A DNA stretch of 64,000 bases from Raillietiella orientalis. Taxonomy: Eukaryota. The stretch spans positions 62,001 to 126,000 of the forward strand of contig JAYWIR010000042.1 in NCBI GenBank assembly GCA_036172245.1, read 5' to 3'. This document shows positions 23,501 through 56,900 of this stretch, piece by piece (the stretch's first letter is position 1; every line of letters starts with the position of its first letter). The notes beneath the pieces are model-generated. The model searched no databases, was not told where the DNA came from, and saw nothing but the letters and a program-made list of their open reading frames with translations. The position numbers and the translations under genes were made by a program.

Positions 23501-25776
23501 TTTTGTATCTGTTTTGTGTATATGTTTGTTTAATTTTTCATTTTGTTTGCCCCTTTCCTCCCCGTCCGCTGCCGGGGAGAACCTCGCCGGTCCGCGTGCC
23601 GGTTACTCGGCGGACGTTGTAGGCCCCAAGGACCTACATCTGTATGTTTATTTTATAATAAACGCCCCGGCGCTACCGTGTGATAATGCCAAACAAGGAT
23701 GGAACAGAGGAAAAGGAAACAAAGAACGCAATCTTCGCTCTAACGCGTCATTTCGTGTGTAAGGCCAGACCACAGTAGGTCAACCCGAAATGTGGCAAGT
23801 TCACGTTCAAACACCCAGGGCTCCACCCCACGTATTCGCAGGTCAAACGAACGACATGCGCCGCACCCCAGTCGTTCCGACCAAAACCGAAAATCGTGGA
23901 GTGCGACCTTGCAGTCCCTGGCCCGCAACTGGTTGCCTGGAGGGCCTCGATTGGTTCGAGATAGTCAAGAATTTTTCGGATGCGTCAGCGCGCCGGATAC
24001 AACGAATGCAGCGACTGGAACGTTTTCTGGCAACCCTGCGTGGAGCAGTCGGGTTCGTCGCGAAAGAGCGGATCACAGATGCGGTTCCATCCCGACTTTC
24101 CAGAGCGCAGATGGGCTGCGGGAAACCGGACCTCCGTAACAGGTGGCGTTCCCTCCCGATCGGCAAACCGAACCGATTCCCGAAGCCCGGAAGAATTCCA
24201 TCTGCCAAACCGCCGGAAGATCGTATTCGTCTCCGGAAGACGAGGAAGCTGGAATTCCACCTGGATCCGTATTTGCTCATCTGTGCCCGTTTGCGGCATG
24301 CAAGAACTCCCTGCTAGGCATACCCGTATTGGATAGGAATCGCCACATCCTCTAGAAGAGAAAATGCCCTCGGGGGAGGGGGAAAGGGGGGGAAGAAGGC
24401 ACACGTTCTTCGGCGACCCTGTTTGCTTCATGGAACTTCTGTCTCTCCACGGGCCGGAACCGCGTCTCGATGGGCGTGGTGCGATTCGATGCCTTAGAAT
24501 TCCTCCGCGGTGCCCGCGGGCGACTCGCTCTTCTCTCGGGTTCCGAAAAAGCGGGCGCCTCCCGAGTCTCCTCGTCTCCTTGGGAATTCGCCTCCGAAAC
24601 TCTCTCGAAGGTCGCCGCCGGCTCGCGGGAAATGCAGATGAAATGCAAACGCACCGGCGAAAATCACGGGAGTCTCGTGCTAATCGGATTTGCACAGCGG
24701 CGCAGAGCCCGGCTGATTGAGCGAAATTGCTGGGTACACGCCGATCCCATGGTGACCAGACTGCTTGCTGCGTTTGGGTTCCTGCAGCTCGGCGGGACGG
24801 CCGCGCTCTTCCGGGCTGGGCGCGCGCGCGACTTCGCGTCACGCGTGGTCGTCGGTCACTCACTCGCACGCCGAGCACGGCGACGGCTCCTGCGGAGAAG
24901 GGAGAGCGCGCGCACTTGGTGGCGGCTGCGTGCGTAAATCTTCTTCCACGTGTCGATCCGAAAGGTCGCGTTTGGGATGCTCCGTGCCAGCTGCGCACGG
25001 CCGACAAACGTCTTCGAGGCCCGAGGCCCTTGCAGGAAGGAAAAGGAAGAAGGGAAACGCGGGTGGGAGCTGGAAAAACGAAATCCTCGGAATTTTCGCG
25101 GTTCCCCGAGGCTCCGGAAAATCGGTTCGCGAGCTCCGTGCCAGACAAACACGGGGGGAGGCGAAAATCCTTTTCCCGCAATGATTAACAGAAAAAAGAA
25201 GGAAGGAGAAAAGGCAAAACTGAAAAAGAAAAATAGAAAATGAGCACTTTGGGGGAAGGGGAAGGGGGGGGGGGGAAGCGCCCTAGGAGTGCCCTAGGAA
25301 GATTCTCCCGCGCGCGTTGCGATGCTGCCGCTCGTGAAAAGGGAGCTCCGTCCTCGAAAACGGGGGTTTCCCTTGACAACAGAAGTCGGTCACTTTGAAT
25401 GGAAAATATCCGTAGATTATAAGTAAACTCTTCCGGGAATGTTCATAGAACCGTTCCCCGTGTCCTCCGATCATATCCGGATTAATCTGAACGGCAACAA
25501 TGGGATTGCGTCTCCAAGGGAACCAAGGGGAGCAACCGATCACACAAAAAGTAGAAGGCGGTCCATTTCCAGCCGATTGCTTTCCTATTAGAAGCTAATT
25601 CATTTTAGAAAATGCGAATCAGGCCTTTCGACCTCCTTTTCTCCTGGATTCACGGCTGCTTACCACGAAGATGGAGATGCTGCACTCGGCAGATCGTAAT
25701 GCCGCTCATTTTCTTTCAGTAATCTCAATTATAAATTTGATTTAGTGATTAATTCAGCTGTTTAGTTAGCTAGAGC

Positions 25777-37800: not shown

Positions 37801-40800
37801 AGCAGGTCTCGTGCAGACTTCGGTCAGCGAGAGAAGTCAGGTGGAGACCGTGTTCGGCCATCGTGGATTTTGTTCGAGGTACGGACCGAACCGATTAGTG
37901 TTGCGCCTACTCCATAGATGGCGGAATCAGCGTCGTACACGCCATGGAATAGTGGAAGCCGTGTTGTTGGAAAGATGCGCCTTCACCCTGCAAACGCAAA
38001 TCGCCAGAGGCAAAGGAAGAAAAACAAGCAAGAAAACAGGGGAGAGAGACGACCGGAATGGATTGGAGGGCTGGAAGTGGGGAGGGAAGTACTAGGAGAA
38101 ACAAAAAGCGAAATTTCGGGAGGTCGAGAAAGTACGGGCTGTTGCGCAAACGACGCCAAGGATTCACTGCGGTACGAAGCCTCCCTCGTGAGGAGCAGAG
38201 CGTCTGACCAGAGGCTCAGCGCAAGGAGTATCAAAACCAGATCGACAGAGCAAATCTATCGGAAGCACTTGCAAGCGGATGGAAAATCAGAGATTGCCAG
38301 CATCCATTCCTGTTAATCGGGACAGATGGGGAGGCTGGAGCGCGTAAGAAAATCGATAGCGGCGGGATATTTCCCGATCAGAGCCATTTTTAGGGAGCGG
38401 GGACTCACCCCGGGCGTCAGGTGGAGCAGCAGAGCTCCCAGCTTCCAGCGAGCCGTGCGGATACCGCCGGGGATTAACGGCGAAGTCCTGTACAAAGGCC
38501 GTTACTAGCTCACTCTCAACGGAACCGAGCTGCGTCCGTTTCCTAAGAAACCCGAAGGTGATAACTCATCTTCCCTAACAAGTAGTGTCCGGGTTTGGCT
38601 TGGCTTCCGGAGCTGGATTCGAGTGCGGAGTGTGCCTTTGGGAAACCCCCGGCTGCTGACCTCGGACGTCCCTGCTGTGACCGCGCGCGCCATGTTTCTC
38701 CGCATTGCGCCTTCTGAAGGAAGGGCCCTGGGAACAGCTCCGGTGCCCAACGAAAAGGGCTGCTCATTCGCGACGAGGGGCGACTCCTCTTGAGGTTAGG
38801 TTGGTGCTCTGGGAGGCCCCCTGAAGGCAACAGCACTGCCAGGTCGAGAGCGGGAAACCGCTCGCCAATCTCTTCGACTTTCCGCTTCCATAGGTACAGA
38901 GACGCGCGCGCGCGCGCGCGTGCGGACCGGAGACGGGAAGACGGGGGAACAGAGGGGAGGACGGGGGAGAGAAACTGCGCGCGGGACAGCACTCTGGCGG
39001 GATCAAGCGTCGACGGTAGAAACTCGGGTCACGGCCGAAGGAGTGGGAAGCGGGTGGGAAAGGCAGAAGGCAGGGGCACGCGCCGAAAGCCCTAAGGCTC
39101 CAGGTGGGACGGAGTGGTGTCAAGAAGGGGAAAGACGACCCTTCCCTGAGGCGGAAACGGGAAAGAAACGGGTGGAAGTGAAAAGGCAGAGGTGTTGCAG
39201 TGACCTTGAACTGTCCCAAGTTCTTCACGACGCACGGGATGACGACGTTTCTTCCCAGGGGGACGGTGACATTCGGGATCGTTCCCACGAACTCCGGAAT
39301 GCTTTCCTGGAGGGACCCTGGAATGAAACGTTCGTTTTTCCCTTTTTCCCTCTTTTTGGTGGAGTCGCCGCTCCGGCGGCAGCTGCGCGCTGGGATCCGA
39401 GCTCACGGAGGGGGAGGAGGCGGGAAAGGGAAGGGAAGAGCGCAGAGGAAGGGGAAAGGGAGAAAGCAGAAAGGAGAACGCTGAGGTCTTCCTCTGCTTT
39501 TGGAGGGAGTGATGCCTTAGGGGATGTCAAGGGCGAGCGGCAGCAGTCACAATGCCCTCCAGGGATTGCCCGAGGGGACGTCTTTGAAAAACGGAGCCTC
39601 CGTTCGGCGTGCACTTCCCTGGCCACATGCCTTAGACGCCTGTCTGGCCTCTGAGGGCAGTCAACTCCGGGTGCTTCTGCCGAGCCTGGATGCCCTCAGG
39701 AACTCCTCTCTTTCTACTCTCGACGGCGCAGGAGACACGAAGAAGGATCGCGAAAGTAACTGGTAGGGGTGATGCCCCCACCACCACCTCCGGAATGGAG
39801 GACACCGTGGCACTATCCTCCCCGGTTCCCATGAGCTTTCCCTGGTCACCGAGCAGGGAGTGACTCCGGTCCTTTCATCATCCGCCGGAAGAGTTCGAGA
39901 GGTGGGGCTGCACCCCCATGTGCTGATCCTGAGGCAGAACTCGGGAGGGATGCTGTGGGAGGAGGATGGCAGGGGTCGATTGAAGGAGACTCATCACCCC
40001 TCAACCCGCAGGGATCCCCGCTCGCCCGATCGACAGAGCAGCAGTCCAGCTGACTGCTGCTTCCCTTTTCCTTCTGCTCAGCTGTCCTTCGAGCTTCCTT
40101 GAAGGCTTTTGCTGCAGCAGTAAAGCCCTCAAGGATACCTCCAGCAGGGCCACTGTTGAGGGACGCTCCTGCAGGCTTCCTCGCTCCCCACCTTCATGCA
40201 AACTTCCCTGAGAACTTCCCGTTCCTGCTGCTGTGCGAGGGGACGTCCCTTCCTGGAAGGATACGCCGCGGTTGCCAAACATACGGTAGCGAGGGAGCGA
40301 CGCTTGCGTTGCGTCGCCGCTTCCAGAAACCCTTGGCAATCCTGCGAAGGAGGGGAGAGCGCTCACACCTCTCTCCGGAAGAACGGCGCACAGCAAGCCG
40401 TTCCCCAGATTATATCCAGCTCCCACCCTGGGGGAGAATGGAGCTCTACGGCGGCGGGTCGCATGCACACGATCACCCACGCAGTCGCCTCCAACCGTCT
40501 GACAGCGGCGGCGATTCGGCAGCTCACTGAAACTCGGAAGAACTTTCCGTTGAGACCCGTCCAAAAGTGAACTGAAGAGGTGCTTCCTGGGAAGGGTATC
40601 TTCCTGTTCCTTTCCTCCCACTTTTCCTCCACCTTTCTTCCTTTCCTCCTCCTCCTCCTCTTTCTCCCTTTCTCCTCGACTCCTTCCAATGTTGCTCTCC
40701 CCGATCCCCTACGCATGCGCGAGGGAAGAGGGACTTAAGAAGGAGACCGGAGGCTGCAAGAGACCAAAAACCAATCAGCAGGTGATCCCCTTTTTATTTT

Positions 40801-42865
40801 CCTGCAGCAAAGGGTAAGAGCGACAGGACTAGAAAGAACTCTGACCCTCTCTCTCTCTCCCGAGCATCTTTCTCTCTCCCTCTCTTCCCCTCCGGGAGAG
40901 AGCCAGAAACTCCCTCCCGGACCTGTTGCGCAATCTCAGCTTTTTCCATTGGGCTGCGTAGGCCGTCTGATGGGATCTGTCTCTTCGGCCGTCGGTCAGA
41001 AACTCGAGGGGGTCACCTGGGTCCCGGACGTCAAGGGGCTGCTTAGGGAGCGAGTCAGCTCCCAGAACCACGCCGCTGCCCCCGTTTGCTTCCCTCCCTG
41101 CCCACCGCAGGTTCAACTTTCTCGATTCCAAAAGGAGGAGGGGAGGTCTTCCCATCCTCCTCTCCTCCTTTCGACGCTGCAGAGATGGGGGTCCGCATTG
41201 CGTCTCTCTCTCCCTCCTCGCGTCGCTAGGTGCCCTTGCGATCCTCGGGCGGCTGTGGGCGGAAGGCAGGAGATCGGCGGCGTGGACCTTCGTGGGGTCT
41301 TCCTGGGACACTTCCGGGAAGCTCCTTGGCGATCAGTGAAGGGCGGGATCGGCCTAAGAGTCTCGCAGCCGTCGCCGGACGCATGCTCTGCAGCTATCTT
41401 ACTCGGCGAGGAGAGAGGAAAGGGCGTAGGAGGAGCACGGTCTGAGGAAGATGGGGAAAAGCTCGGGGCTATGGGTGGCTCTGCGTACCGCCCGCGAGCT
41501 CGGTGGAGTGGGTGCAGCTTCTCTTCTGCCATAGACGCTTCTTGTCGGGGAGGAGACTGCGGGGGAGGGAAGGGGAGTAGTTGACTACGGAGTAGTTGAC
41601 TTCGGAATGGAGCGGAAATCTTCTGGATCTTCAATGTCTCTTGGGATGCCAGTCGGGGGAGGCGGCCTCCGCCTGCGTCTCCTCCTGGCTCGTCCCCTCT
41701 GCTTCTTGGCTCGCTCTCTCGCTTTCCCACCGGCTCCCGGGACGGCCGATCCTTCCTTCCCCGGAGCGGGAAGGGTGAGGGAGTTTCCCTCCTCATTCGA
41801 CCTCTCTTTTCTCCTGTTCAGAGAGTAAGGAAAGCCCTATTCCTTTGTTTCCCGCACACAGGTTAGAAAGGAGGGATGGAAGAAATGCAACATCCGGGAA
41901 ACGCGGATAACCGGCCTGTGATCCTCACCTTCCTTCTCTGCCCACGCACCGTCGTAGGCTGTAGTGAGGCAGGAAGTGACAGGGACCAAACTCCAGCAGC
42001 TCGTCGGCGGGAGCTGCTCTCGTTGCCCTGGGAAACCGCCTCTGCCGCCCTGCAAACGTGATCGGGCGCTGTCGAGCCGCTGGCTCGTTCCAGGATGCTG
42101 CTTGCGCCTGCGAGAGGACGCAGAGAGCTTTCCCGAGGGAGGAAGGGGATGGAGAGCACGAAGAGGAGGACATCCTCGCGCGGATGCAGCCTGGCAGCTT
42201 CCCTCGGGGGATTCGCTCCCCCCTTCCGCTTCCAGGCTGCCGCGCTCGCACGTTCTGCTCCCTCCTGCCGTCCTACCCGCCACTCCCGCTTCCTCTTCCC
42301 GGAGGCGGGAAGGGAAGGGGTGCGCTCCTGTGTTTTCCCTTTTTCCAAGAGGGCTGTCGTCGGCTGTGCACTACGGAGGGCTCCGAGGGTCGCTGCCAGC
42401 GAGCCTCCAAGCACCATGCGAGGTCTCATGGAGGAGGGAAGGGAGAGGAAGAGCTCTGGGACAGTTCCAGTGAACTAAGGAAATCGGGGCCGCGTGAGCA
42501 AGGAGGATCTGTCCCTGGGATGCGAGGGGGGTGAGGGGGAAGGGCAAGGCGGCTTCGTCTCACCCCGCTCAGAAGAAGTCCGAGGCAGGCGCACCTTCTC
42601 GCTTCCCGCTAACCCTCCGAGGACGCGGAGGATTCAGGGAGTTCGGGATGGGTGGCTCCCCCTGATCCTTGCACGACTCGCCTTCCCCATTCTCGCATCC
42701 CTTCTCCTCCCCACGTGTCTTCCTCTTTGGCCCGAGAAGCCCCGCGGACTCACCTTCGGGACGCGCCTCCTCCGAGGGGCGAACCAGGGAGGCGGCCAGT
42801 AGAGCGAAGGCGAAGGCTAGCCGGAGCATCTCACGGAGCGTCGCCCGAGGCGACCGGGGCCCCAT
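5440..42865 (-). CDS. DIP-gamma: DIP-gamma-like / lachesin-family three-Ig GPI-anchored cell adhesion protein, full spliced gene (9 coding exons, 462 aa)
   Basis: Exon lengths 112+113+208+171+114+139+152+222+158 = 1389 nt, with matching phases (1,0,1,1,1,2,1,1) and no internal stop. Motifs VGW, GCYMCQINTS..KSQIGCLDV and MGAYLCIASNDVPPAVSKRVQLSVAFAP match the DIP-gamma subfamily as I recall it. Orthology is not tested, so read the symbol as '-like'. Confidence 0.9.
6300..7800 (-). mobile_element. Decayed LINE ORF2 C-terminal remnant in intron 8
   Basis: GISL and LSFRSEGK post-RT-like segments, plus CRPCRGEVENID/IFAAC (frameshifted C-terminal Cys/His motif). Confidence 0.35.
7933..8154 (-). 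CDS. DIP-like exon 8 (Thr/Ser-rich stalk)
   Basis: Acceptor cttgcag|; encodes (E)IITTTIMTTTTTTVRVTTTIASTGTASTSWAAPSVESPASFPSLMTTEAVALATIRKESLLERKGQDLSTFST; donor A|GTAAGA. Confidence 0.85.
8231..8382 (-). CDS. DIP-like exon 7 (Ig3 C-half)
   Basis: Long pyrimidine tract and ttcttag|; encodes (S)EKYAVAEKASGATSVISELTISNLVHSDFGYYECRTNNSEGRNSSRILVY with the D-x-G-x-Y-x-C motif; donor G|GCAAGT (GC donor). Confidence 0.92.
10388..10526 (-). CDS. DIP-like exon 6 (Ig3 N-half)
   Basis: Acceptor ccgccag|; encodes (F)APAVFPEDPERGASLGAFAVLTCRGEGHPRPSVSWARNNSRIEET with the Ig B-strand Cys and C-strand Trp; donor AG|GTACGG, phase 2. Not in the supplied ORF track. Confidence 0.92.
11050..11700 (-). mobile_element. 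APE-like remnant in intron 5
   Basis: GESRLDRLL (SRLDR motif) followed by DAPPV and FWHPWNSIL (WKLN.SLL-like). Confidence 0.35.
11846..11959 (-). CDS. DIP-like exon 5 (Ig2 C-half)
   Basis: Acceptor ctgttcag|; encodes (G)ASLVFADVSRRDMGAYLCIASNDVPPAVSKRVQLSVA; donor T|GTAAGA. Confidence 0.96.
14044..14214 (-). CDS. DIP-like exon 4 (Ig2 N-half)
   Basis: Acceptor cttgcag|; encodes (I)PPDIVNNGSSHDLIVKEHDNVTLVCEARGYPSPEIEWSREDLRPILLNGKETLRFK; donor G|GTAGGT. Confidence 0.96.
15150..16470 (-). mobile_element. Possible hAT-like fossil
   Basis: HDGTCSNV...MLNLLI and ILSRIATIAL; very degenerate. Confidence 0.25.
16631..16677. repeat. Inverted repeat with perfect 17-bp arms
   Basis: CACCTAACACTGGCACA ... 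TGTGCCAGTGTTAGGTG, with a further CCCT/AGGG pair inside the 13-nt loop. Confidence 0.9.
18050..18850 (-). mobile_element. hAT-like transposase fossil
   Basis: TNGGSNVK (TD.ASN-like), HVCNL (CxxH..NL-like), TPWNN (TRWNS-like), DYW and MPAT (dimerisation domain-like) in order. Confidence 0.4.
19800..21400 (-). mobile_element. Possible hAT-like fossil
   Basis: VFVFC, WKDS, HCFVWH and CHTR segments in hAT order; AT-rich and very degenerate. Confidence 0.25.
22395..23690 (+). mobile_element. 5'-truncated Tx1-like element, same 3' UTR subtype as E3
   Basis: EKYPGV (KYLGV-like) near 22420. 23410-23690 resembles 53660-53975 (caagatggc...tggaac...aaaggatgcagaggacgc; ccggtccgcgtgccgg; ctgtatgttta; AATAAA plus hairpin). 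Confidence 0.75.
25777..25810. repeat. (CT)n microsatellite
   Basis: Seen directly in the sequence. Confidence 0.95.
26328..26506. repeat. 47-bp-period minisatellite, about 4 copies
   Basis: Core ATTCCTGATGGGGAGGGAATCAACCGAGGGAGA starts at 26332, 26379, 26426 and 26473. Confidence 0.95.
27375..27447 (+). pseudogene. tRNA-derived sequence (SINE head or tRNA pseudogene)
   Basis: A-box TGGTCGTGTGG (27382-27392) and B-box GGTTCGAATCC (27429-27439) at tRNA spacing. The acceptor and anticodon stems do not pair properly. Confidence 0.55.
27460..27960 (-). mobile_element. Decayed RT-like remnant
   Basis: RTPRGGF (K.PG.DG-like), GKFHPHNWKETS (NWRPIS-like) and LSRGIR (RGIRQG-like) in order. Confidence 0.35.
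28500..31300 (+). mobile_element. Decayed Tx1-like element (ORF1-like, APE-like and RT-like remnants)
   Basis: Degenerate motifs in the expected order across frames: FDGQ (ORF1 YxGQ-like), PDLVFAREVH, WYKQLRLDPSLL, DGEK, VKGSDP, EEVLQDVGIP. Confidence 0.45.
33210..33417 (-). CDS. DIP-like exon 3 (Ig1 C-half)
   Basis: Acceptor tttcag|; encodes VGWIKVETQTILSMGSKVVSDATRISIIHDEYRMWKLHIRQTKVEDKGCYMCQINTSKLKSQIGCLDVF; donor A|GTGAGT. Confidence 0.96.
36400..37600 (-). mobile_element. Possible hAT-like fossil in intron 2
   Basis: SVASDET, SVSTDTES and RNFEMLLR segments in DDE order. Confidence 0.3.
38902..38924. repeat. (CG)9 alternating purine-pyrimidine tract
   Basis: acgcgcgcgcgcgcgcgcgtgcg. 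Confidence 0.95.
39205..39317 (-). CDS. DIP-like exon 2 (Ig1 N-half)
   Basis: Acceptor ttccag|; encodes (G)SLQESIPEFVGTIPNVTVPLGRNVVIPCVVKNLGQFK; donor AAG|GTCACT, phase 0. Confidence 0.92.
39600..42450 (-). mobile_element. Decayed Tx1-like ORF2 remnant in intron 1
   Basis: Degenerate RALHP...ARSRL (APE), LRPIPPFTD (RT RPISL-like) and LEFL motifs in order; heavily frameshifted. Confidence 0.35.
42754..42865 (-). CDS. DIP-like exon 1 (signal peptide)
   Basis: Encodes MGPRSPRATLREMLRLAFAFALLAASLVRPSEEARPE with a hydrophobic core. Strong donor G|GTGAGT in phase 1 joins exon 2 in frame. A second in-frame ATG lies at 42829. Confidence 0.8.
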
Positions 42866-43199
42866 GTCCCCGCGCGGCTCTTCACTTCTGGAGCGGCGCT
42901 CCTCTCCGGGGCAATGCCCGCCCGCGCGGATTCGAATCCCCCATCTCCCTCGCCGTGGACAGGCGCGCGACCACACTTTTCCGGGGTCCCTTCAGCCACC
43001 GAAAGAGTTCCGTGAAGCGCAGGTCCACATCCCACGCGGATGCTGTGCAGCACTGGAGCAACCCGCTTCCGGGGAGGCTTCTTATAGTCGGCTGCGGGCA
43101 CGCGCAGGCGTCGCCCCAGAGAGGTTCAGGGAGGAGCCCGTCCGAGGCTTGCCTCAGCATCCCGCCTGCGGTGAGAAAGAAGAAAACAACGGAGGAGAG

Positions 43200-43860
43200 C
43201 TCTCCTCTCCTTCTCCAGGGGTGGTGCAACGGACTCTTTTAGGGAACCTTGGGTAGCGGAGGATGGGTTGGTCCCAGGCTCGAGAGTGACCTCCGTCCCG
43301 CGAGGTCCAAAGGTGAGGATCTGCTGTCTCCCTGGAGATGCCAGCCCTCGTCCTGGCGACGGCCTCCTTCCCTTCGGAAGAGTCGCAAGGGTTCCCAAGA
43401 ACTTGGGCGCCGTGGGAGGGAAGGCTGAAAACCTCCGGCGTTTTTCTCGGCAGCGGGACGCAGGTCAGGGAGGATCTCTCCCCAGGGAAGAGATGGAAGC
43501 GCTGCTCTTCCTCCCGCACTCCTGAACTCCCCGCGCCCCCATAATGGAGCAGGATAGAAAGAGAGCTCTCTTGCTGATCCCTGCCTTCTTTGCAGAAACC
43601 AGCCTCCCCCGACGAAGGGGAGGCCACACCGACGTACCCACATCCGAGCCCTGGAGGGAGGGTCTTTTCCAGCGTTTTGTCGGAGGTCATCTCGCCAGGT
43701 GACCATAAGGAGACCGGGGGTTCCGAGTTTTCCTGCACAAGGCAAGCAAGCAGCACCCTTGTTTTTGGGCTCCAGGACCATTAGCTCCACCTGTGATTCT
43801 CTTGCCTCCATGACTGATGCGACGTGCCTTTCCTGATTCCTCACCCTCTCGAGGGGAAGT
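43200..43860 (-). mobile_element. APE endonuclease-like remnant just upstream of DIP exon 1
   Basis: RNQERHVASVMEARESQVELMVLEPK resembles an APE N-terminus; GVA and YPAP-like motifs follow. Confidence 0.35.
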
Positions 43861-45499
43861 TCTCCTGGCTGTTCCTCTTCACCTGCTCTTCACGGTCCAC
43901 TCTGCCACGCTCCCGAACTTTGTCTGGACCGCTCTGCCACCCTGGCACGTCACCGGCGATCCGTCTTCCGTGAGGCCCGGGAGCCCTCGTTGAGTTTCCC
44001 GAATCCTATTCTTTAGCGGGACTCTTCCAGGTCTCTTGTCCCTGCCTGCTGCCCTTCCTCGGAATCTCAGGAGTGCTGTTTGCTTCCTTCTTCTCTCCTT
44101 ACTTTCGTGCCTCGGAACGCTTCGTCTCTTGTGAGGACATTTGGGCATCGCCCCCTTTCCCCCTACTTCTTCTCGATGGCCTCCAAGTCACTGTAACCTC
44201 CTTGCCACCCCAAGGCGAACGAGGAGGCGAGCATATTGCCGGGAGGAGAAACCTTCTGGCCTAAGGTCAGCTGGACTCTAGAGGTGCAGCTGCGGTCCAC
44301 ACAAGGACTCCCAGCGAGGTGCTTAGCATACAGAGATAGGGACGACCCCCGGCTGTCTATACTGATGCCCAAGTGGTGTCTCTAGGCAGGCTTGGGGGAT
44401 TGCAATCCTCCGTGGAGCCGGTGATCACCCAGATGCAACTTCGGAGTCCTGCGGTCCCGAGTTTCCTGCAGGTAAGGACGCTGAAGACCTCGCGAGGCCG
44501 CTCCTAAGAGAAGCTCCAGCCAGGCTCGGAAACTAACGCGATCGCTTCCTGATGCGTCTTTGGCGTCCAGTCTCGACGCCGACATCCTCCCTTGCCACGC
44601 AAAGCAACGCGCGCGCGCACGCGCTGGCGCTGGATGCAGGGAGGCGCGCCCCGCACCCGAGGGAGGAGGTTCGCTCCCTTCAGAGCCGCGTACAACAGCC
44701 CGGAAGCTGCTCCGCTAGGCGATCCTTCGCATCCTCTCTCGCCGATGGAAAGTATCAGCTCGTTCCCGGCTGCGCCAAGCGCCGGGCGGGCTGCGACTTG
44801 GTGCCATCGAATGCGCATCCACTCGAGGGAAGCGGCGGCGTGCCAGGATGGCAGAATCCCCGATTTCCCTGAATGTGGTAGGAACCGAAGAGCGTCCGGG
44901 ATATCACCGGGACAGGGGGGGTTCGTGAGTGGGACAATGAAACGGGTGGGTCGCCTTGTGTCGGTTCCCTGGGAAGCCAGGGAGTGTCGTCACCAGGACT
45001 CAGCGCTCCCGTTTCGTCTGCGGCGAAAATCGGTCTGGAAAGGGGAAAAACAGATGAGCGTTCGCCTAATGATTGATCGCTCCCTCTCTCTCCCGACTTC
45101 CGGGAAAGCCTGAAAGCCGGCGGGACCTCGGATGCTGGCTCTCCGGACTCATCCATATTCAAATGCCGTTAAAAATTCAGCGGCGCGCTCCCGTCCCTTT
45201 GCCCATCAGGATGGAAGGCGAATCTCTGTCTCGGCCTCGCCTTCGCTCTCTATGTCCTCCCCTGCCCATTTGCATCCACCTATCGCCCCAGCGGATTCGC
45301 CATTCCTCCAGGATTTCTTGCTTCCTCTTTCTTTGTTTTCTTCTCGAAACATCTCGGCACTCTCTCCGGGAATGCAGTCCGGAAGCCCTGCGTGTCCAGG
45401 GAAATGCGGAAGGCGGAGAGATCGCTCCACGCCCCGGTCGCTGGATGACAAAAGAGCACTTTTGAAATCCTGCAGAAAGCTTGATCTCTCGCTCCCTCG

Positions 45500-47270
45500 A
45501 TCGCATCTGCATCCGTCTACCGGCAGCAGCGCGCCCAGGGATCCACCTACGCCCTCCACTCGGAAATTTGGCATTCCCCGGGAAACGATGGATAGAGCAC
45601 CTCTTCTTCCAGGAGACCGCGCTTATTCATCCCGTCATCCCTACTTCGTTTCTAATTTCCCTCAGCGGCTACCGAAAAAATATTCCCCCCTTCCCCCGTT
45701 GTCCCCCTTTTCTCCTGTGTCTTCTCTCGAGGGTGCATCGAAAGACACCGAGGATCTCCCCCCCGCCATTCGAGGTCATGTTACATGGCCTTCTCCTCTT
45801 CCTGGCCTCCTTACCCTTCCCCCCCCCCGAGGTATACTGACACATTCGCCTTCCCGAGACTTCCGTCCTTCTCGCCCCGTGTGGGCAGCTGCGACTTCGG
45901 AAGGAACCGAAGCGGTCGTCTTCCAGAAACTCGGTCTCCTGGCTTCGAAGCCGTCTCCAAGGGACAGAAGAATCGGCCCGTTCTGGTGGAAGTAAGCGAC
46001 GGGATGTCTGGATACGAAGAGAAGGAAAAAAAGCGAGGAAAGAACTCCTTCCCCGACCGAGAATCATGGCTGCCTGCGTCAAGTAAGAGGTTCCGGGGAA
46101 ATGCAGTCCAGAGCACTGACCGACGGGAAGGAAACCGTCTTGTGCTTTCTCCGGCCATAGGAAGAACAAGCGACTCACCCTGACGAGGTTCCAGAGGAAG
46201 CGAGGCCTCCCTGAGGATGGAGGATGCCCCGGCCGCCTCAGGGAAAGTACCGCCGGTAGGAAAAGGAGCGGCTTCCAGGTTCCCGCTTGAGCTTCTCCTG
46301 CTGCTTCCCATCGGGAGGTCCTGGCGATGGGGATATGCGGCTCCTCCCTATTCTTCCCGTCGTAGGCAAGACGTCGGAGGGTGCTGCGCCGTGCGAGAGG
46401 AGGGTCCCGATGGGGGACGCGAAGGCAACAGTGATCTCTCCTAGAAGAAAGGCCTTTTGGACGCGCTCTCGTTCCTCCGAGAACCATTTCTCGGAGACTT
46501 CCTCGGGTCGCGCACTCCCTGCTTCGTCCTGAGGGGGGAGGCGCAACTCGGAGAACTGAGGCGCTTCTTGGCTCTTCCTTTCTTCTTCCTCTTCCCGCCT
46601 CCTTGCTCCCTTTCCGTTTATCCAGAGCATCCTCGAAGATGCCGTTTTGGAGGAAGAGGCTCCCACGCGGGCATGCTCTCGCGCTCAATCCTGCAAACGA
46701 CCCTGGGTCTCCTCCCACGGGTCGTTCCTCCCCTTCGCGCCCGGAGGCAATCGAGGAGGGAAGCGTGAGAAGGAGAGGAGACGCCATTTTTCTTCCTCGA
46801 GAGGGGGATGGGAACAGTCGCCTGCTTTTGAAGAGGAAGGGGCCCTTCTGGTGGTCGGCGACAGCAGGAGGTCTCCGGGAAACGAACGCGCCGAGGGCGA
46901 GCCCGGAGAGGCCGTTCCGCTCCATGCCTCCGGAACAGGGATGCGCGTTTCCGGAGGGGGACTCCCCCCCCTTCGTGGCTCCGAAATTTCTTTCCTTCGT
47001 GGAAAAATCGCTTGACGCGCGCGGACGGCCGCAGACAAAGCCCCGCTCGCCGTAAGGGGCGGGCAGACTGTGCGGGAAAGGGAAGTGGGGGAGAAATTGG
47101 GGAATATCCTTGCTCGGAGGAGAGACTTCCTGAAAGGCGACCCCTTCGCCAGCACGTGCCGTACTCAGAGTTGCACCCACGCGGGGGACGGAGGCCGTGA
47201 CGCTGGGAGAGCAGAGCAGGGAGGAAGAACGGGGACTCTGGAGGGAGACCACGGAATTTTGTTCCGGAGC
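45500..47270 (-). mobile_element. Decayed Tx1-like ORF2 remnant
   Basis: Degenerate GVAFQEV, ADH, AQDGFLP, KPGD and EILGVF motifs in APE-to-RT order, partly inside the 527-aa ORF 45669..47252. Confidence 0.4.
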
Positions 47271-47579
47271 CCCCCCACGTCAAGATGGAAGGGAAGGGTG
47301 GCTGATCAAGGGAGCCACCGAAAGGCTGCCATGGCTCCCTTGACAGAGGAGGAGGACTCGCTTCCGAAAGCGAGGGTGCGACGGGCATCAGGACATGGGA
47401 CTCTTCGACAGAGAAAGTCCCACTCTTCGACGAGGATGAAGACATAGACGGGGTAGAGGCGGCCTAGGTGCCCGAGTTTCCCGTCCAGCCTAACTGCATC
47501 CCTCCCACTCAGGTGGCGGGAGCCGCAGAGTTACTTTCCAGCCTTCATTCCAAGAATCGCTGTCTCGCCGCCGTCTGCG

Positions 47580-49790
47580 AATCGCCGCATTGGAACATCA
47601 GCCGGTTGAGCGACGGAGGCAGAAGACGAGACATCGCTGCCACCCTGCTATCCTTCGACCTCGTGCTCCTGAAAGAGGTCGACGTTATCTCTACAGAGCA
47701 GGAGAGAGATATCCATCGGATTGCCGGTGTCCAGCTGTTGCAGCTCCCGCCGGTCCTGCGGAGTGGCGTTCCTTCTTCAACCGGCCGTCGCGACGGCCGT
47801 GAAGGGCGTGCGCTTCGACGAGGGAGGTCGGGTAGGCCAACTGACACTCAGGTGATCCGACTCGATCGACTTTGTGGTTACGAACTTGTACGCCCTTAGC
47901 GGCTCAAGCAGAGCCCGGGAACGCAAGACGTTCTTCGAAACTCTGAGACGCGACTGGCTGTTTGTAGGAGACGTGTGGTAAGCGCATCTGGTAGCCCGAG
48001 ACTTCTCCAGGTCGGGATGCTGGTCTTGGCATCCTTACAATGGAGAGAATCGGATTGCAAGTGCAGTTCCGGATGCTCGCACTGTGTCGAGCTATAAACT
48101 TCCTCCCTGTGTGCGCCTGCGCGCATCTTCCTACGGAGGTGTGCAGGCAGTGAAGGACTTCTTTCCTTGGTGCCTGGCATGCGTCACAGGAAACAGGGAT
48201 TTGGGTATCCTTTGAAGCAAATCGCCACCCTGTTGAAAGCCAATACGTGGATTCCCTGCCGCCCAAGGAACTACGATGCTTGGCGGCAGGAATCCATTGA
48301 TTCTTGGGCTGCATTCCTAGGAATGAGCCGCGAAGATCTTCGCCCCCTGCGTCGATTCCAACCGTGGCCACTCCAAGATGTGATTCAGGACGAGGTGAAG
48401 TTTCCTTCCTGGCCTCCACGCCCCTCGCCGAAGATCTGTCTGCCCTCTAGGTGCGAGAAGACAGTAGCCAGCCGGCAAGGTGGGAGTTCTGCACCATCGC
48501 AGGAAGAACGAAACTACTCGGCGAATGGGACACGAGCGAGCTGGCGGATGCCGCCACTCCTCGTGCTACAGCAAAGGGATTACTTCGGTGGGCAGAAGCT
48601 CTTGGTGTTGCCCCCGAGGAACTTATAATCCCTCCCTGCTGTTTGGACGGTTCGGTGTTTCCCCTTGCATGGAAGCAAAACGTCTTCCTCTTCTTGCACT
48701 AGGGCTTGCGCCATAACGAGCGGCGCCACCGAGTTTCCGGTGGGGTGGCTTCTTCCTACTGTGCCCGGTGCGAGGTGATGGACTCGTTCCCGCACCTTGT
48801 TTTAGACTGCGGTGCCCTCGAGGAACTCTGGCGGAGGTTGGCAGCAGCACTTCTGTCACCGGAGGACACCGCCCGAGAAGAGCTGCGACAGTTCTTCCAA
48901 CTGCAAGGACTTTCGACGGCTGAGATGATTTCCCACAGTTGGTTGCGTCCGCGCCATCGTCACGGTCCGAGACGTGCTGGAGAACACTGGTCAGTGATGC
49001 TGTGTCACCAGGAAGGCAGCCGACTCCATCAGGGCGGCAGCTGGGTGGCGACACTTGAGTGAAAACGCAACGGAGGAGCTCACCGGCATCCATCGGCGGA
49101 TTAACAATGGTTTCGAACGAGGAACCCGGTGATCCACCCCCATTCCCTTTTAACTCCATTTTTGTTCTCGCGCCCTTCCTCCCATTCGCTTCGTAGTGCT
49201 TTTGGTGCTATCACTCTTTGATTTTCCCAGTGACTGCGGAGAGTCACCAAAGTTTTCTGGCCCATCCCTCCCATTTACACTTTTCTTTTTAGTTTGTAGT
49301 CCACCCTCCCCCATTCGTTCATGTTCTTCCGTTTTCCTGGCCTGCGTGCCAGTGGTGTATCTCCGTTGTTGGTTTCCGTAGTCGTTGGCTGGAAACAACT
49401 GTTTCCAGCTAGTTTATGTCAATAAATGTCCCGGCGTGACCGGGTAAGAAACTTCAGCCTTAAGCGAGCCCAGTGATTCTTGCCCTTCCCTCTACATATT
49501 TGTTTCTGCTTGTTTGTACTCGCATCTCCTTAGGCTCAGGAACTTTTCTGGTGCGCTTTGTTTTTATCCCGGTGAGTACAGAGCCTCACCAAAGACCCGT
49601 TACCCTTCCCTCCCGTTTTTGTTTTTGTTTTCCCTTTGTTCCTCCCATGTTGCGAGCTGTTTGCTCTCCCGGTCTGCATGCCGGTGGCTTCTCTTTGGCC
49701 TCTGTCGTTGTGTTGGTTGGGAACTCTGTCCCTGACCGGTTTATGAAAATAAACGCCCCGTCGTGACCGGGTGATAAACTTCAACCTCAA
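47580..49790 (+). mobile_element. Tx1/L1-clade non-LTR element E1, internally deleted ORF2 plus double 3' UTR
   Basis: APE N-terminus (WNISRLSDGGRRRDIAATLLSFDLVLLKEV; NLYALS...ERKTFFETL; VGD) jumps directly to a post-RT DAGLG-type motif at about 48015. C-terminal Cys/His motif CARCEVMDSFPHLVLDC, stop near 49151, then two 3' UTR units. Confidence 0.8.
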
Positions 49791-49794
49791 AACT

Positions 49795-51360
49795 CACTAT
49801 AGGATGCGGGGATTCGTCTGCCCCCTGAGGCAACTCGCCTCACTAGTGGAAGCCCCCCACGGATCTCCTGCCGCCCGAAGAACTTCAATGATTGGCAGCA
49901 GAAGGCTGTCGATTCCAAGAAATGCAGCCTGAAAACCTTCACCATTGGAAGTGGCGACGCAGGAAGAGGTCAAGTGGTTGAACCTGGCCACCATACTCCT
50001 AGCCGCAGCGTTGTCTGCGCTCAGGGCGAGAAGAGACAGTAGTTGACTGGCGAAGTGGGAGTTTTCCTGCACCATAGCAGGAAGCACAAAACTCCTTGGT
50101 GATTGGAAGACTCGCGAGCTGGTGAACGCTGCCACTCCGCGTGCTGTGGCGACGGGACACCTTCGATAGAGAGAACTTTTGAGTTTTGACCCTGAAGAAC
50201 TTGTGCTCCCTCCCTATAGTGTAGATAGTTCTTTGTTCCCCCTCGCCTGGAGGCAGACCGCACTGCTCTTCAACCACTGAGGATTCCAGTTTAACGAAGG
50301 GTGGCATCGACTTTCTGGAGAGGTTGCATCCCCGAACTGTGCCAGGGACGGGTCGACAGAGTCGACCCAACCAAACCTACTTCTGGACTGCGATGCCCTC
50401 CAAAAACTGTGGCGGAGGCTGGCAACAGCATTCCTGCAGCAGGAGGACATCGCCCGAGACGTGTTGCGGCGGTTCTTCGCTCCCGGAGGTCTCTCGATAG
50501 GCGCGATGGTCGCAACCATCGATTGCATTCGTGCCATCGTCACTGCCCGCCTTGTGCTCCAGACGACTGCGCAGAGAAGGGAAGTGACGAGGATGGCAGC
50601 AACCTACATCAGGAGGGCTGCAAGGTGGCCTCACCTGGAAGAGGAAGTCAAGGAGATCACTGGCATCCACCACCTGTTTGGAGCCGCGAACCCGGTGATC
50701 CTTGTCCCCTCCCTCCCTTAATATTTTTTTTCTTATCTCCCGTCCCCATTCGCTCCGTAACTTTCTTGGTGCTTTTTGTTTTTATTCCAGTGAATATGGA
50801 GCGAAACCAAAGTTCCCTGCCTCCCCCATGCACTTTGCTTGTTTTTGTAATCCCTTGTCTCTTCCCCGTTCCGGACTTTCTGTTTCCCGGTCTGCGTGCC
50901 GGTGCACCTTCCCCTTCTTTTTTTGCTGTTGTCTGTTGGGAACTGCGTCTTCCCAACTATTTTTTTTTTTTTTTTAATAAACATCACGGGGTGACCAGGT
51001 GGAAAACTTTAATCTTCGCTACCAGGAGGATTTGGGCGACCCTTGCTTCATCCCACATTTTATTTTATTTTATTTTCCTTATTACCCATCTCCATTTGCT
51101 CCACAACTTTCCTGGTTCTTTTTGTTTCTATCCCGGTGCCTCACAAAGCGAAGTCAAAGATCCCTGTCCCGTCCCACCCCATTTATTTATCGTTTTATCC
51201 TCGACACCTTCCCCTATTCCGAACTTACGTTATCCCGGTCTGAGTGTCGGTGGACCCTCTTCTTCGCTTCTTTTGTTGTAGGCTGGGAACTGCGTTCCCA
51301 ACTGATTTAGTTTTATACAAAATAAATACTCCGACGTGACCGGATGAGAAACTTCACTCT
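49795..51360 (+). mobile_element. Tx1/L1-clade element E2, 5'-truncated (ORF2 C-terminus plus double 3' UTR)
   Basis: DCDALQKLWRRLATAFLQQEDIARDVLRRFF aligns by eye with DCGALEELWRRLAAALLSPEDTAREELRQFF in E1. Stop at 50719-50721, followed by two 3' UTR units homologous to those of E1. Confidence 0.8.
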
Positions 51361-51364
51361 CCAT

Positions 51365-53978
51365 CTGCTATCAGGGGAGTCGAACGGACAGAACAACCCG
51401 GTCAACGAGGCGTGCGCGTCCGTGCACGCTCGTTTGTTCACCAGAGAGGTCGGGATGGCGAAAAGCATCGATCACGTGTTCCTCGACCTAGAACAGTTAA
51501 GAGGCCTCGTATGCAAATTTTACTCCTCCCTGTACGCAGAGGCACCCTACCAGCGCGACTCTGCAGAGCGTTTGTTGCCCGAGGGCATGTCGGCATTAGG
51601 GAAGGATGAACGGGAAAGCCTCGAAGAGCCTTTCACGATGGCAGAGATCATCTACACCATCGGAAAGCTCAAGAAGCGCAAAGTGCCAGGGGAAGACAGA
51701 CTGCCCGTGGAGTTTTACCTATGCTTTGTGACAGAGTTAGTCCCCCTGGTGTATCGACTATGCATGCAGATCCACGAACGGGGCGAGTTACCCGCCTCGT
51801 TCCGGTCAACAGGAGTACGTCTCCTACCCAAAACAGGAGACTTGCGCAACGTTGGCAATCGGCCGCCAATCACTGTAGTGAACGCGGACGGCAAGATGCC
51901 TACCAAACTGTGGGTGGAGCGGCTGGGACAGGTGGCCGGATCCGTGATCGGTCCGGAGCAGACGTACGCCGGAAGAATCATGGAGGCCAACTTGCTCCTC
52001 GCGAGCACATGGTGACATTTGCAACAGCGGGTTGTGCCAAGGGATCACGAGAGATTCCTGGGATTCCTGAGAGTTCCGGATTCTCTTCCGACCAGGAAGG
52101 GGAAGGTCACCAAGGATCAGACGCTCCTGGACCCTTGTGGTTGCAGTCTATTTGAGCAAAACTTTCGACTGAGTCGACCAGGAACTCCTTCTGGAGTTCC
52201 TGGAACGCATGCGATTCCCGAAGGTGTTCCTGTCCTACCTGCGCTCCTGCTGGCTCTTCGCGCTAATAAGTATCTGCTTCAGAGGCCGGCACGTACATGG
52301 CGTGCTCTCTCGCCGCGACGTAAGGCCAGGAGACAGCCTGAGCCTTCTGACCTTCAGCATTTACTTCGAGCTGGTGCTAAGAGCATACAGGGAGACACTG
52401 GTAACTCTGCCGAGCTCGTGTCCCGGCACGCCTGCCGTGTCGGCCTATGCAGATGATCTTCTGCTGCTGCTTTCCGGGTCCACCCTGGCGTCCGCTCTCG
52501 AAGCCTTCTTTGGACTGCTGCGCTGCGAGACGGGACTTGAGGTGAACAGGGCGAAACCGTCCATCGTGGCAGTTGTTACCGCGTGAGCCGGATGTCCGGA
52601 CTGGATTTGCTTGGGGATCCCCACGGGCAATTACATCAAATACCTTGCCGTTCCGTTGGGAGGCTTCTGCATAGCAGAAGCCTGGTCCGGCCGTCTCCAT
52701 GAAGTGGAAATGGCTCTCGGCAGGTTGTACTTCCCGGAACAGGCCGCGGTGTGAAACGCGTTTGCGGCTTGCCTCCTTCGCTTCCTTCTTCTTGCTTGCC
52801 CCAACCCTACGGCCACCCAAAAGAGGACCGATGGCCCCCTCAGAAATGCCCTGTGAGGCGCTGGGAGATTCAGAGTCTGCTTAAAAGACCTTTGTGCTTC
52901 CCGTAAGGATGGTGGATTGGGCCTCCTAATCCTGGAGAGAATGTGGCGTCAGCGCGGATTCCAAAAACTTGCTCTGGCTTCGAACCTTTAAATTACTCCT
53001 TGGCACGCTCCGGAAGAATCCTCGCCAAGCGGGCAACCGGTTGCGAGAGATTGACCTCGGTCGTCAAGGCCACCTAGCAAAGTTTGATCCATCTTGGCTA
53101 TCAACTTTGTTAAATGGTTGCCTTGGTGCAACAAAATCACTGGATCTCTGCCCTCCCCGAGAAATGGACTACTTGGCTGCGGGAATCCGTTTTCCGCCTG
53201 GGGTAAAGTCAAAGGCACGAGCAAGGGTGAATATATCTTCCTGCAAAACGGCAGATGCACTCGTCAGTGTTTGAGAGAGATTTTCGAAAGCACCAGGAAT
53301 CTGCTTCGGGCGTCGTTCACCCCCTTCGCCCCAGTGTTGCCCTCCCTACGGAAAGCATCAGACAGGGATCTTCCGGGTACTATGCCCGACTGCAGCAGGT
53401 GAGGGGAAAGAGAGTTCCTCCCACACCTGCTCGTTGATTGTGTTGCCCTCCGTCCGGGAACGTTTTGTCGCGTCTCTGCGAGGCCTCGAGGGCAACCCCA
53501 CAGACGTTTAAGGGGCCTCTTGCTGCTCTAGGCCATCTCGCCGGCCGCATCCCTAGCAGCACCATGCCTACGTGGGATCGTGGCTGCATGGAGCAACGCC
53601 AGAGGAGGCCACAACGACATGGACACCACTTATTCTGCTGTCTCTTTATGAGGATAGCGTCAAGATGGCCGATCCCATCTGGGAACCTCGAAACAGAAAC
53701 TTGTCGGCATCTTGCAAAGGATGCAGAGGACGCTCTCCAGCATCCGGTGATTCCATCCCGAACCCTCCTAATGTTCTCTGCATATTTTTTATTTTATTTT
53801 TTGTTGTTTCCCCTTCCCATCTGCTGCCGAAGTGAAATTCGGCGGCCTGGGTGCCGGTTTTCGGCAGGTTCCTTTTTGTATACATATGTAAAGTGGCAGG
53901 ACCAAGAGTCTTGACACTGGGCTGTATGTTTACTTTTATATAAGTAAACGTTCCGGCGCAACCGGGCATCAACCAAAA
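51365..53978 (+). mobile_element. Tx1/L1-clade element E3, 5'-truncated, with a disrupted reverse transcriptase
   Basis: RT motifs in order: FYSSLY, LEEPFTMAEI, KVPGEDRLPVEFY, LLPKTGDLRNVGNRPPITVVNAD, FD*VD, VRPGDSLS, SAYADDL, VNRAK, IKYLAVPL, RKDGGLG. Contains frameshifts and stops; 3' UTR ends about 53975. Confidence 0.93.
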
Positions 53979-56900
53979 AGCTGCCACCTCTCAGATGACT
54001 CCTCGTAGGAGGCGGCATATTGAGATATGAGGCATCCTCCATTCTTCTGGACACAGCAGCCTTTTTCATGTGCCTAGAGGCACGAGGCTTCCGTTGTTGC
54101 TTCCAGGTAGGTCATCAAGGTGGAGGGAGGCGTTTGGGCACCCCCTCTTATCCCACTTCTGTAAATGCTAGGGACATCTTCTGGAAAAGGAGAAGGAAGC
54201 ACACGATCTACTTGGAAACTGGGTGAATTCACTTGACAGAATGCAGGAGCCTAGAATGTTCGTTCACGCCATCCATCCTCCTCCATGAGCAAGTGTGATA
54301 TCAAAGACAGATAACAGACAATGTATGAGGTGATCCAAGGGGTCATGCATTACAATTCATGGGACAGCCACGTACCCTCTGCGGAAATCCGCTCCTCGAA
54401 ACCACCCTCCGCGACTGGCTTTGGCCTGAAGGAGTCGCTGTCAGTGAAACCTTCCTGCCTCTTGAACGCAGACAACCTGCCCATTGGGATTTGGGCGTAA
54501 TCGGAAAAACGCCTTCCGAGGTTTAGTCAGAGAAGCTCATGGAGCTTCCCAGAAGAATCAACCAGGACGCTCACGTCTCACCGCCCGGTATTCGGGCACA
54601 AAAAGGCGGATGGGAAGTGGGTGTTGTACTGGGGAGTCGCGATTTGCGGTAGAACTTTGGATGCCTTTGGATGGAAGTTCTTACCACAGGTTCTCTCCTG
54701 ATGGCACCTGACCTTCGAATCTGCGATCCTGAATTCCAATTCGCAGAGCAGCGAAGAAACTTTGCTCCCACGGAAAACGTTGGATGCAATTCAAGTAGCC
54801 AAGGCTGCTGCTGCTGCGCGGTCTTGAAGACGCCTTCTGAGAATGGGCTCTTGTAGTGTCGCGTTAAGCTGCCTTCTTTATATCTTCTATTACGTGTTCC
54901 TTCTTCTGCCCTTCTGGAGAGATTGCTGGGTGGCAACCTTCATTCTCCGAAAACTCTGCAAACCTCAAACCGAACGAAGAGGGAGCGGCTCCCAGGAAGA
55001 AACGGAACGGGAAAAACGCTGCCTTCGGACGGAAGAAGCAGACGTTTCCGCCCAGGCAGACGATCACGGGAAGAAGGGATTGAGGACCAGCAGTTCGCCT
55101 CGAAACTCGGAAAAAGAAATTCCCCTTCCAGAAACGACACGCTTCCGTTTCCAGAACAAGATTCCCATGTGGATTCAGTGCCTGGACAAGAATAGGGAGA
55201 GCAGGCAGACTCACACGAGCAAAGGTTCTCAGTTAATAAAGGTTCTGAGCAGCATCAAAGCATAAGAGATCGGGATAAGGAATAATGCTCTGTCTGGACG
55301 ATCCACCAGAACTTTGCTCTTGGAGGATAGGCAGGTAGTCAGGCTTTGAAGGAGAGTGACAGGATTCAGAAGACAGAAACCATCAACCATCCATGGGATT
55401 TTCATAAGCCCATCCTCCTCAGAGCAATGCTTGTTGTTGGCTTTCACGACTCTGATGGAACGTCAAGAATTGCTCAAGAACGGTACTTTACTAGTAACTC
55501 CATCTCGAGTGATCCGAAGATTTGCAGCCCCCGTACATAGCTCCTGTATTTTCCTATTTTCTTCGAGGCGTCTAACCATTTGCTTGAGAATTTAACACAG
55601 CGAGACTCGCAGATACTCTTCCCAAACAGCATGCAATTCGTTTCTGCTCCTCCGCTCAGGACTTCGTCTTCGTCCCCTCAAGAGTCAGATCCGCTATTGA
55701 TCATCGACCACAATGGTTGCTTTCGGCATCCGTGTGAACTCCCATATATATATTTTTTCCTTTTCTCTCTAGCTGGATGGGCGATTTATTCCTGGCGGGA
55801 GGCGGTTGTCGCGCTCGACCGTCGTTCGACCACAGACAACAGCTTTTGGGCTTAACGCGGGAGGCGTCTGACGTGATGTCTGCTTGAGCAGCATCCATCG
55901 CGGATCTTTTTTGATTTCCCAAGCATCGTCTTGCTCCATTTTTTATTTTGAGAACGACCGGCTAACATCAAACCTGTGAATTTCATGTTCAGAAGAGATC
56001 GTTTTTCCAAGTTCCAGACTCAAATCATCTTCTAAACACAACCACCTATCCATCTAAATAAATGATTGTCTGATTGATAGATTTATTAGCATTCAGCGAA
56101 AGATGTGAGCTTCCATTCTGCGGCCCTAGGACCGCCCCATTTCATTTGTGTCTAATGAACATTGATGGCCATCATTACTTCGGTCACTGGGTCGCCCTTT
56201 TCGTATCTGAGCGCGATTATCATTTCTCGGTTGGAGATGACTTTCTACAGATTATGCGGATTTCTTCCTTTTCCAGGAACCATTTTTTTATCTTCTTTGA
56301 CTCCATGCCATTGGTTTCTTTTCTTTTTCAGGATGCAAGGTTCATCCTGCAGCAAGGGACAGTGCTAGGGCAGGAGCCAGAACATGGTTTCTACGAGATC
56401 CGATAAGCCCGTTGGCTACATGGAGTGCTGTCGAGTAACCACACTTGGCTCGTGCCTGTGTGGTTCCTCGTGGGCAGGATAGAAAGCAGGCTTGAAAAAA
56501 TGGTTGCCACTGCGCTCACGAATCTCAAGGCATGTTGCACGAGGTTTGCCCATGTGACTATGGATTGTGCATGCTGGACATCTGCACACTGCGCAGCCAC
56601 CGAAGCTGAAGTCAGTCGTCCAACCGATTGGTCCCAATCACTAAAGTTGATGACTAATTTGAGAGATGGACTGAAATGCTCTCATTGGCATCCTGAATGG
56701 TCACCACCGTTTTCTCTCAGTAGACGCTTCCCGTACTTGCTATTTCTGGCAGGAGGATGTCCACCTTCAGCCTAATGGTAGCTGGTTCTTCGACACGAGG
56801 AGATTTCCCCTGGTATATCCACACCGGAGGCAACCTCAAGTTGCTCCATTTGTAGGGCTATCTGGGTCTGCATCTGCGCTATCACTTGGCACTTTTTTGT

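Follow-up and report, generated by a model that had tools for sequence, protein, structure and literature searches.

Tail-less LINEs stacked at the endonuclease GDFN codons of a related LINE in Raillietiella orientalis: a likely case of one LINE family aiming at another

How does a head-to-tail stack of long interspersed nuclear elements (LINEs) arise, in which each copy starts shortly behind the end of the previous one and none carries a poly(A) tail? This question is raised by positions 47,580 to 53,978 of a 64,000-nucleotide stretch of the Raillietiella orientalis genome (GenBank assembly GCA_036172245.1, 210 Mb in 491 unplaced contigs; contig 42, JAYWIR010000042.1, positions 62001-126000), referred to below as the window. 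An earlier note, made from the sequence alone, had described three stacked elements and proposed a family that targets either its own 3' terminus or a duplicated target. Our analysis very probably resolves the stack into four, not three, copies of one LINE family, called here family A, inserted, all in the sense direction, at the GDFN codons in the endonuclease of a single host LINE. Repeated site-specific target-primed reverse transcription at these codons is the likely way in which the stack was formed.

The region from about 47332 to 53971 reads as one host element cut by the four family-A copies, because insert-free relatives join its two halves and a terminal duplication, identical at 13/15 positions, encloses them. 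The 5' half (47345..48000, plus strand) carries a decayed apurinic/apyrimidinic (APE) endonuclease, residues ~16-164, from AHLVARD to the break; tblastn places residues 16-167 at 47549-48008, and the alignment of one host relative (L022) begins at 47345. The endonuclease fragment stops at residue 167, and the fragment from 51350 restarts at residue 165. The 3' half (51351..53971, plus strand) runs from the GDFN motif (FTLHLLSG) through the reverse transcriptase (RT) and the zinc-knuckle region to the 3' untranslated region (UTR), and was matched at residues 165-211, 361-929 and 1085-1241; it has two internal deletions, at 51487-51494 (~residues 212-360) and 53191-53385 (~930-1084). Among five open reading frame (ORF) fragments of the window, a Pfam scan found RVT_1 only, in this half and below the Pfam cut-off (E 1.7e-6). 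Three of the five host relatives fetched (L289, L292, L293) are free of inserts and join 48005 to 51350, in the fourth (L290, on another contig) A-type copies form a separate stack at this site, and the fifth (L291) continues with different sequence beyond it. The 3' copy of the host duplication is the 15-mer directly after the last UTR unit (53972..53986, plus strand). When 15-mers starting at 53967-53977 were compared with 40000-48000, the best match was 47317..47331 (plus strand), which sits just upstream of the start of host similarity.

Between the two halves, all on the plus strand, family-A copies alternate with copies of a short target duplication, which we scored against the 13-nt empty site of L292. 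At the 5' junction only ACTTC is left (48001..48005; 5/13, ungapped), short or partly deleted. Unit 1 (48005..49450) is a 5'-truncated LINE with ORF2 residues ~831-1208 and the 3' UTR. It is followed by a diverged duplication copy (49451..49463; 9/13 with C or T allowed at position 2), unit 2, which consists of the 3' UTR only (49464..49777), and a second spacer (49778..49791; 11/13). Unit 3 (49792..51005), again 5'-truncated, holds the end of ORF2 with the zinc-knuckle region and the 3' UTR. The third spacer (51006..51034) comprises a 13-nt duplication copy (10/13) and ~16 unassigned nucleotides, as the alignments of unit 4, another 3' UTR alone (51035..51350), begin at 51035; the last copy of the target matches at 12 of 13 positions.

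A repeat search and a UTR profile recovered the five co-oriented 3' UTR units of the earlier note, no poly(A) run is present at the unit ends, and the four end motifs lie where it had placed them (49444-49460, to 49787, to ~51015 and to 51360). Other parts of that description needed revision. The fifth unit is not like the rest, being the host's own 3' end with a different terminus, and a next truncated copy follows units 1-3 but not unit 4, after which the frame of the host endonuclease is taken up again at residue 165. The near absence of spacing becomes 13, 14 and 29 nt when measured from element end to next unit, i.e. 4-20 nt past the motif reported earlier.

In the C-terminal tree units 1 and 3 cluster with family A, apart from the host families (starred 100). 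Each of units 1-4 belongs to a dispersed repeat, and we scored 40 of 118, 277, 219 and 109 candidate relatives, respectively; among these, identity to the best other copy drops from 5' to 3' (92, 83, 80-82 and 77%). Entry of new copies at the 5' junction would produce such a fall, which suggests that unit 1 is likely the latest insertion and unit 4 the earliest. Rfam, at gathering thresholds, gave no match in the window, and therefore no known RNA gene as a target.

The motif shared by the unit ends proved to have two parts. Family A is tail-less at its 3' end, with no poly(A) or simple-repeat tail. In dispersed copies the order is AATAAA, a short hairpin, GGGT, five bases and AYTT, and wherever the 5' junction lay within the locus, a duplication of 7-15 bp there repeats the sequence from AYTT onward (e.g. 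L002, L005, L011, L012, L015, L017, L022, L026, L062, L066, L086). As the AYTT bases recur there, the last base of the element is the one preceding AYTT, and what follows in the motif is target. The stack motif is thus the family-A terminus joined to duplicated target (AYTTYAAT), and the earlier reading of it as an element end stands for ...GGGT-RRKAA and fails for the remainder. Among 90 ends taken, two lacked a recognisable stem; the end core was found in 68 of the other 88, without an extra A in 59 and with 1-3 in nine. In unit 1 the conserved terminus (49423..49450, plus strand) is made up of AATAAA, a short C/G hairpin whose loop has 5 nt, and 6 nt to the end, a layout repeated in units 2-5 and in the sister families. 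The predicted folds of this hairpin range from -3.9 to -8.9 kcal/mol, as calculated without a shuffle control. Its stem is constant across families and its loop is family-specific; several loops hold a tetramer that we take to be GNRA-like. Two other readings of these ends were rejected: a terminal-repeat (pseudo-LTR, long terminal repeat) nature of the UTR unit, as the sequence after the UTR is another family's endonuclease, and a short tandem-repeat tail, as the AYTT bases return at the 5' junction as a duplication.

The target itself is evident at two loci (L098, L103), in which a full-length family-A copy of 5915 bp lies between host GDFN halves: the related LINE runs to AGDFN, A comes next, beginning with its first base, and an 8-bp duplication marks the resumption of the host. 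AGDFN aligned to the GDFN of human L1 ORF2p. According to the accessible portions of PMC1919474, the catalytic residues of the R1Bm endonuclease include the corresponding Asp and Asn; this putative correspondence between the host AGDFN and R1Bm is our own reading. The first base of the target duplication is the second of the Asp codon. The duplicated target considered by the earlier note is therefore borne out, and it consists of the GDFN codons in the endonuclease of a related LINE, entered in the sense direction. Family A has an AGDFN of its own, encoded with differences from the host at four of the five third-codon positions; within the duplication, the two sites differ at positions 2, 8 and 9. 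Independent older events at the site, in other hosts and with other duplication lengths, were recognised at L002, L015, L022, L037 and L066, and further stacks at L010, L015, L030, L066, L071 and L290.

The specificity was counted in a flank-blind sample, because DNA queries with unit 2 and with family C carried 13-23 flank bases, which favours on-site copies. A pattern that ends at the element's last base had 195 exact matches in the genome and none for reversed controls, more than chance would give; the first 100 listed were classified. Young copies, defined by a UTR at least 90% like the reference, were followed by the target sequence in 39/39 cases. The host endonuclease resumes at residue 166-167 after 29 of them, the duplication and another family-A 5' end follow nine, and in one (L229) the target start leads into sequence matching nothing. 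No 3' flank among these 39 young copies matched A's own interior. Older A-type copies were on site in 6/14, one of these judged by eye, and the remaining 47 rows belonged to other families or were unassigned. In best-hit samples, unit-1 relatives were on site in 9-10/29, some of the loci being duplicates, and unit-4 relatives in 3/27. The earlier note had taken dispersed copies with ordinary tails as speaking against a targeted system. The older branches are indeed dispersed (8/14 off site), yet these copies keep the tail-less end and the AYTT core, a tetramer with 14.6 occurrences per kb of the window. By our estimate, chance would place a copy at GDFN in at most ~1% of cases even in a genome made only of 6-kb LINEs.

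Counting from the side of the target gave a consistent picture. The host family has 141 exact target sites, of which 60 lead into a family-A 5' end; of the first 30, 16 are filled, 13 empty and one holds other A-like sequence. At A's own GDFN site none of 76 is filled, 72 continuing unchanged and four being point variants (60/141 vs 0/76, Fisher p 2e-14). In these samples young family-A copies are confined to the GDFN codons of a single host family, so that an essential gene of its relative is likely what family A aims at.

Several observations weigh against this interpretation. The older branches, the kind present in the window, are mostly off site; the five duplication copies of the window differ from one another (5 to 12 of 13); and the age order of the units is based on four best-hit values. 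Family A is younger than its hosts (4.5% vs 7% pairwise), and its own sites have therefore been less exposed, a caveat countered by the nine of 39 young copies that over the same time were targeted again across the host duplication. Of nine filled hosts, seven have 5' and 3' haplotypes that agree, one is discordant and one unclear. Finally, a full-length young A with an identical 8-bp junction occupies 16/30 host sites (L259-L288), just one of the other 14 holds any insert at all, and no 5'-truncated young A was seen among these 30. So uniform a full-length junction is unusual for a LINE and is also predicted by copying between hosts; transcription from within the host is another possibility.

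Copying between hosts would mean that the filled site spread without new retrotransposition, either by amplification of a host-plus-A composite or by homing-like gene conversion, and we consider it improbable. It would account for the single junction of the full-length young copies and for the discordant haplotype pair, and plain duplicate loci do exist (L010/L018, 99%; L014/L017/L020/L021, with a common flank; L088/L232, identical). However, a tree was built on 640 bases of upstream sequence, with 14 filled hosts and 13 empty ones; L262, L264 and L272 were excluded for short or foreign flanks. On this tree the filled/empty label changes 11 times vs 9.3 after shuffling, and a single clade of filled hosts is rejected (p-AU 1e-37); this intermixing argues for separate insertions. 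Nor is flank diversity beside the site reduced in filled hosts (upstream 10.2% vs 7.3% in empty ones, downstream 6.0 vs 6.3%), and the correlation of A and host distances over 35 loci is not significant (Mantel rho 0.14-0.23, p 0.06-0.16). The older on-site events, moreover, vary in host, truncation point and duplication length, and a single amplified composite is largely refuted. Still less credible is the recognition by family A of its own 3' terminus, which would build arrays like those of Zepp or Cnl1. The nine young copies that directly precede another A copy, and the further stacks listed above, are what such recognition would produce, but in young dimers a host-derived duplication separates the copies, the 60 filled host sites go straight into an A 5' end with no earlier A end upstream, and A's own GDFN sites are all unfilled. 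Re-insertion at the junction of A end and duplication cannot be separated by sequence from entry at the 5' junction, and both require the host target, so the self-targeting proposed earlier is not needed. The probability that the stack arose by local duplication, whether tandem or segmental, or is an assembly error is close to nil: units 1-4 are mutually 56-69% alike in their UTRs, which excludes segmental duplication as the explanation, each unit has nearer relatives on other contigs, the host is bounded by a duplication of its own, and the similar stack of L290 lies on another contig.

The preferred reading, site-specific insertion into the host GDFN codons, leaves room for two ways of choosing the site. 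Probably the endonuclease of family A makes most of the choice, and a few read-through target bases at the RNA end, pairing with the nicked strand, possibly aid it. A minority view, which we hold possible but doubtful, gives the RNA tail the main role: the endonuclease would see only AYTT, and read-through bases at the RNA 3' end would pair with the nicked strand and fix each branch to the host family of its source copy. Polyadenylation cleavage takes place downstream of AATAAA, and this signal lies ~24 nt before the element end, so that cleavage could fall in the flank. Off-site insertions have in common, as judged by eye, just 4-5 bases on the downstream side of the nick, without the upstream bases of the host; young A is strict and the older dispersed branches are loose; and A's own site differs from that of the host at the three duplication positions named above. 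There is precedent in the accessible portions of PMC7265360, where accurate priming by R1Bm requires the downstream target and the accuracy of SART1 is raised by an added AGG. On the other hand, an L1-type endonuclease reads the same bases, so that flanks cannot separate the two models, no copied tail was observed between element end and duplication at off-site insertions, and the endonucleases of Tx1L and TRAS1 alone recognise ~10 bp (PMC1919474, as far as that source was available).

The site, the orientation, the duplication, the absent tail and the sparing of A's own motif can be read directly from the sequences, and the following course of events would be consistent with them. The family-A endonuclease would make a nick in the bottom strand, inside the Asp codon. 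The protein would grip its RNA by the predicted 3' hairpin and start reverse transcription at a fixed point, so no poly(A) would be copied. With each duplication the 5' junction would regain a target, which would let the next copy enter there and shift the older ones downstream.

Near-intact family-A copies, 5915 bp long, contain ORF1 and ORF2. The latter has an APE endonuclease, an RT and a C-terminal zinc knuckle (L091, L094, L097), and the upstream ORF1 is a long frame with Cys/His knuckles (L092, L094, L097). Older copies have many truncation points and 7-15 bp duplications, and young copies are mostly full length with 8 bp. The best PDB match is human L1 ORF2p (E 2e-45, vs 7e-16 for R2), and the homologues carry the domains PF03372, PF00078 and PF13966. 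By ORF1, the ORF2 domains, 5' truncation and short duplications family A is an L1-group (L1/Tx1-like) LINE, which differs in having no 3' tail. The protein search returned one relative at 79% and others at 21-30%, and homologue names give no clade placement; the Atlas matches are generic endonuclease-RT clusters. In the RT tree the 13 in-group rows form one starred clade, which takes no stable position among 15 outside proteins, with long branches meeting and no row labelled Tx1; all families make up one clade plus a single outside relative, P0001. A metagenome scan with one family-A protein gave 162 pattern matches, none of which was confirmed.

Sister families recur at other sites. Family C 3' ends (L141-L170) lie antisense at the KAFD motif of the RT of several host families in 19/30, a share biased upward by the 13 flank bases in the query; four of the others have a similar duplication followed by a 5' start or a contig end, six are elsewhere with a TCGA core, and one is cut by a contig end. 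Family E (L171, L172, L175 and others), sister to family A in both trees, lies antisense at residue 65 of the endonuclease in 22/29 copies of the flank-blind sample, where the core is ATCTC. Family D (L096:8627, L098:8894), together with L004 and L013, shows recurring antisense insertions at host ORF2 residues ~278-281 and ~307-309. A more speculative reading, which we hold possible but less likely than not, is that a lineage-specific radiation of LINEs has turned into a predator-prey guild, in which each family would have been selected to insert in, and disable, a conserved coding motif of a sister (GDFN in sense for A, KAFD and residue ~65 in antisense for C and E), with synonymous differences keeping its own motif immune and read-through RNA tails helping to reset targets between branches.

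As to the genomic setting, relatives of the window's host family (L111-L140) are dispersed, with a LINE-protein match in 1/30 flanks, and most of their flanks start with an ACC/TCC-like core. Young copies crowd LINE-only stretches, often small contigs or the vicinity of contig ends (C26, C33, C53, C72, C74, C81 and others), unlike the window, where LINE fragments are sparse. Outside the stack, the window holds a lone host-type LINE 3' fragment (23167-23686, plus strand), an A-type ORF2 fragment (1-291, minus strand) and a 47-bp tandem repeat (26332-26506, 3.7 copies, 89% matches).

Head-to-tail, co-oriented and 5'-truncated copies are also known from the telomeric arrays of HeT-A and TART, with which the earlier note had compared the stack. 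This comparison fails, as the stack is internal to a host element, enclosed by both of its halves and by the host duplication, and has a target duplication between its units. Closer parallels are found among the Tx1-clade LINEs that target other transposons. In the accessible portions of PMC4494074, Tx1L is described in Tx1D, Tx1-Mar in Mariner-N4_AMi and Tx1-9_AMi in Harbinger, Tx1-8_Crp and Tx1-4_AMi target LTR retrotransposons, and for SINEU-3 two copies are noted to have entered one site in succession; those of PMC6719617 likewise name Tx1D, Mariner-N4, Harbinger and some LTR elements as targets. Like these, family A is a LINE of the APE type whose preferred site lies within a different mobile element. 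Measured by the threshold of PMC4494074, as given in the available text (more than 20% of flanks of one kind), it lies above with 39/39 young and 6/14 older copies, and the unit-4 relatives alone (3/27) fall short. It differs from the Tx1-clade cases described in these portions in that its target is the coding sequence of a sister LINE at a catalytic motif, with young copies ~100% on site, and in that several sister families here each have an ORF2 site of their own.

Zepp and ZeppL of green algae (10.1101/2020.06.13.149070) and Cnl1 of Cryptococcus (10.1101/2022.06.10.495668) also insert LINEs into LINEs and form arrays rich in 3' ends. As far as these sources were accessible, however, both are described as targeting their own copies, whereas family A leaves its own GDFN untouched and enters hosts of another lineage. 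R1Bm and SART1, site-specific APE LINEs, share with our working model a target set by the endonuclease and a possible pairing of RNA and target (PMC1919474, PMC7265360, in the parts available); they differ in belonging to the R1 clade, in targeting 28S rDNA and telomeric repeats, respectively, and, for SART1, in copies with poly(A). In the literature covered, which lay outside Repbase Reports, most subscription papers and the supplements of PMC4494074, we found no report of a LINE aimed at the coding motif of another LINE.

The targets of known transposon-targeting LINEs are DNA transposons, LTR elements or copies of the LINE itself, and the catalytic codons of a sister LINE would be a new type of target. 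A host family can alter the GDFN site only synonymously, and each insertion destroys the host copy that it enters; competition between LINE families thereby becomes directly testable. Moreover, close relatives with different targets in one genome constitute a natural series for finding the endonuclease residues or RNA-end bases that set the site, a question which is also relevant to LINE-based tools for site-specific gene insertion.

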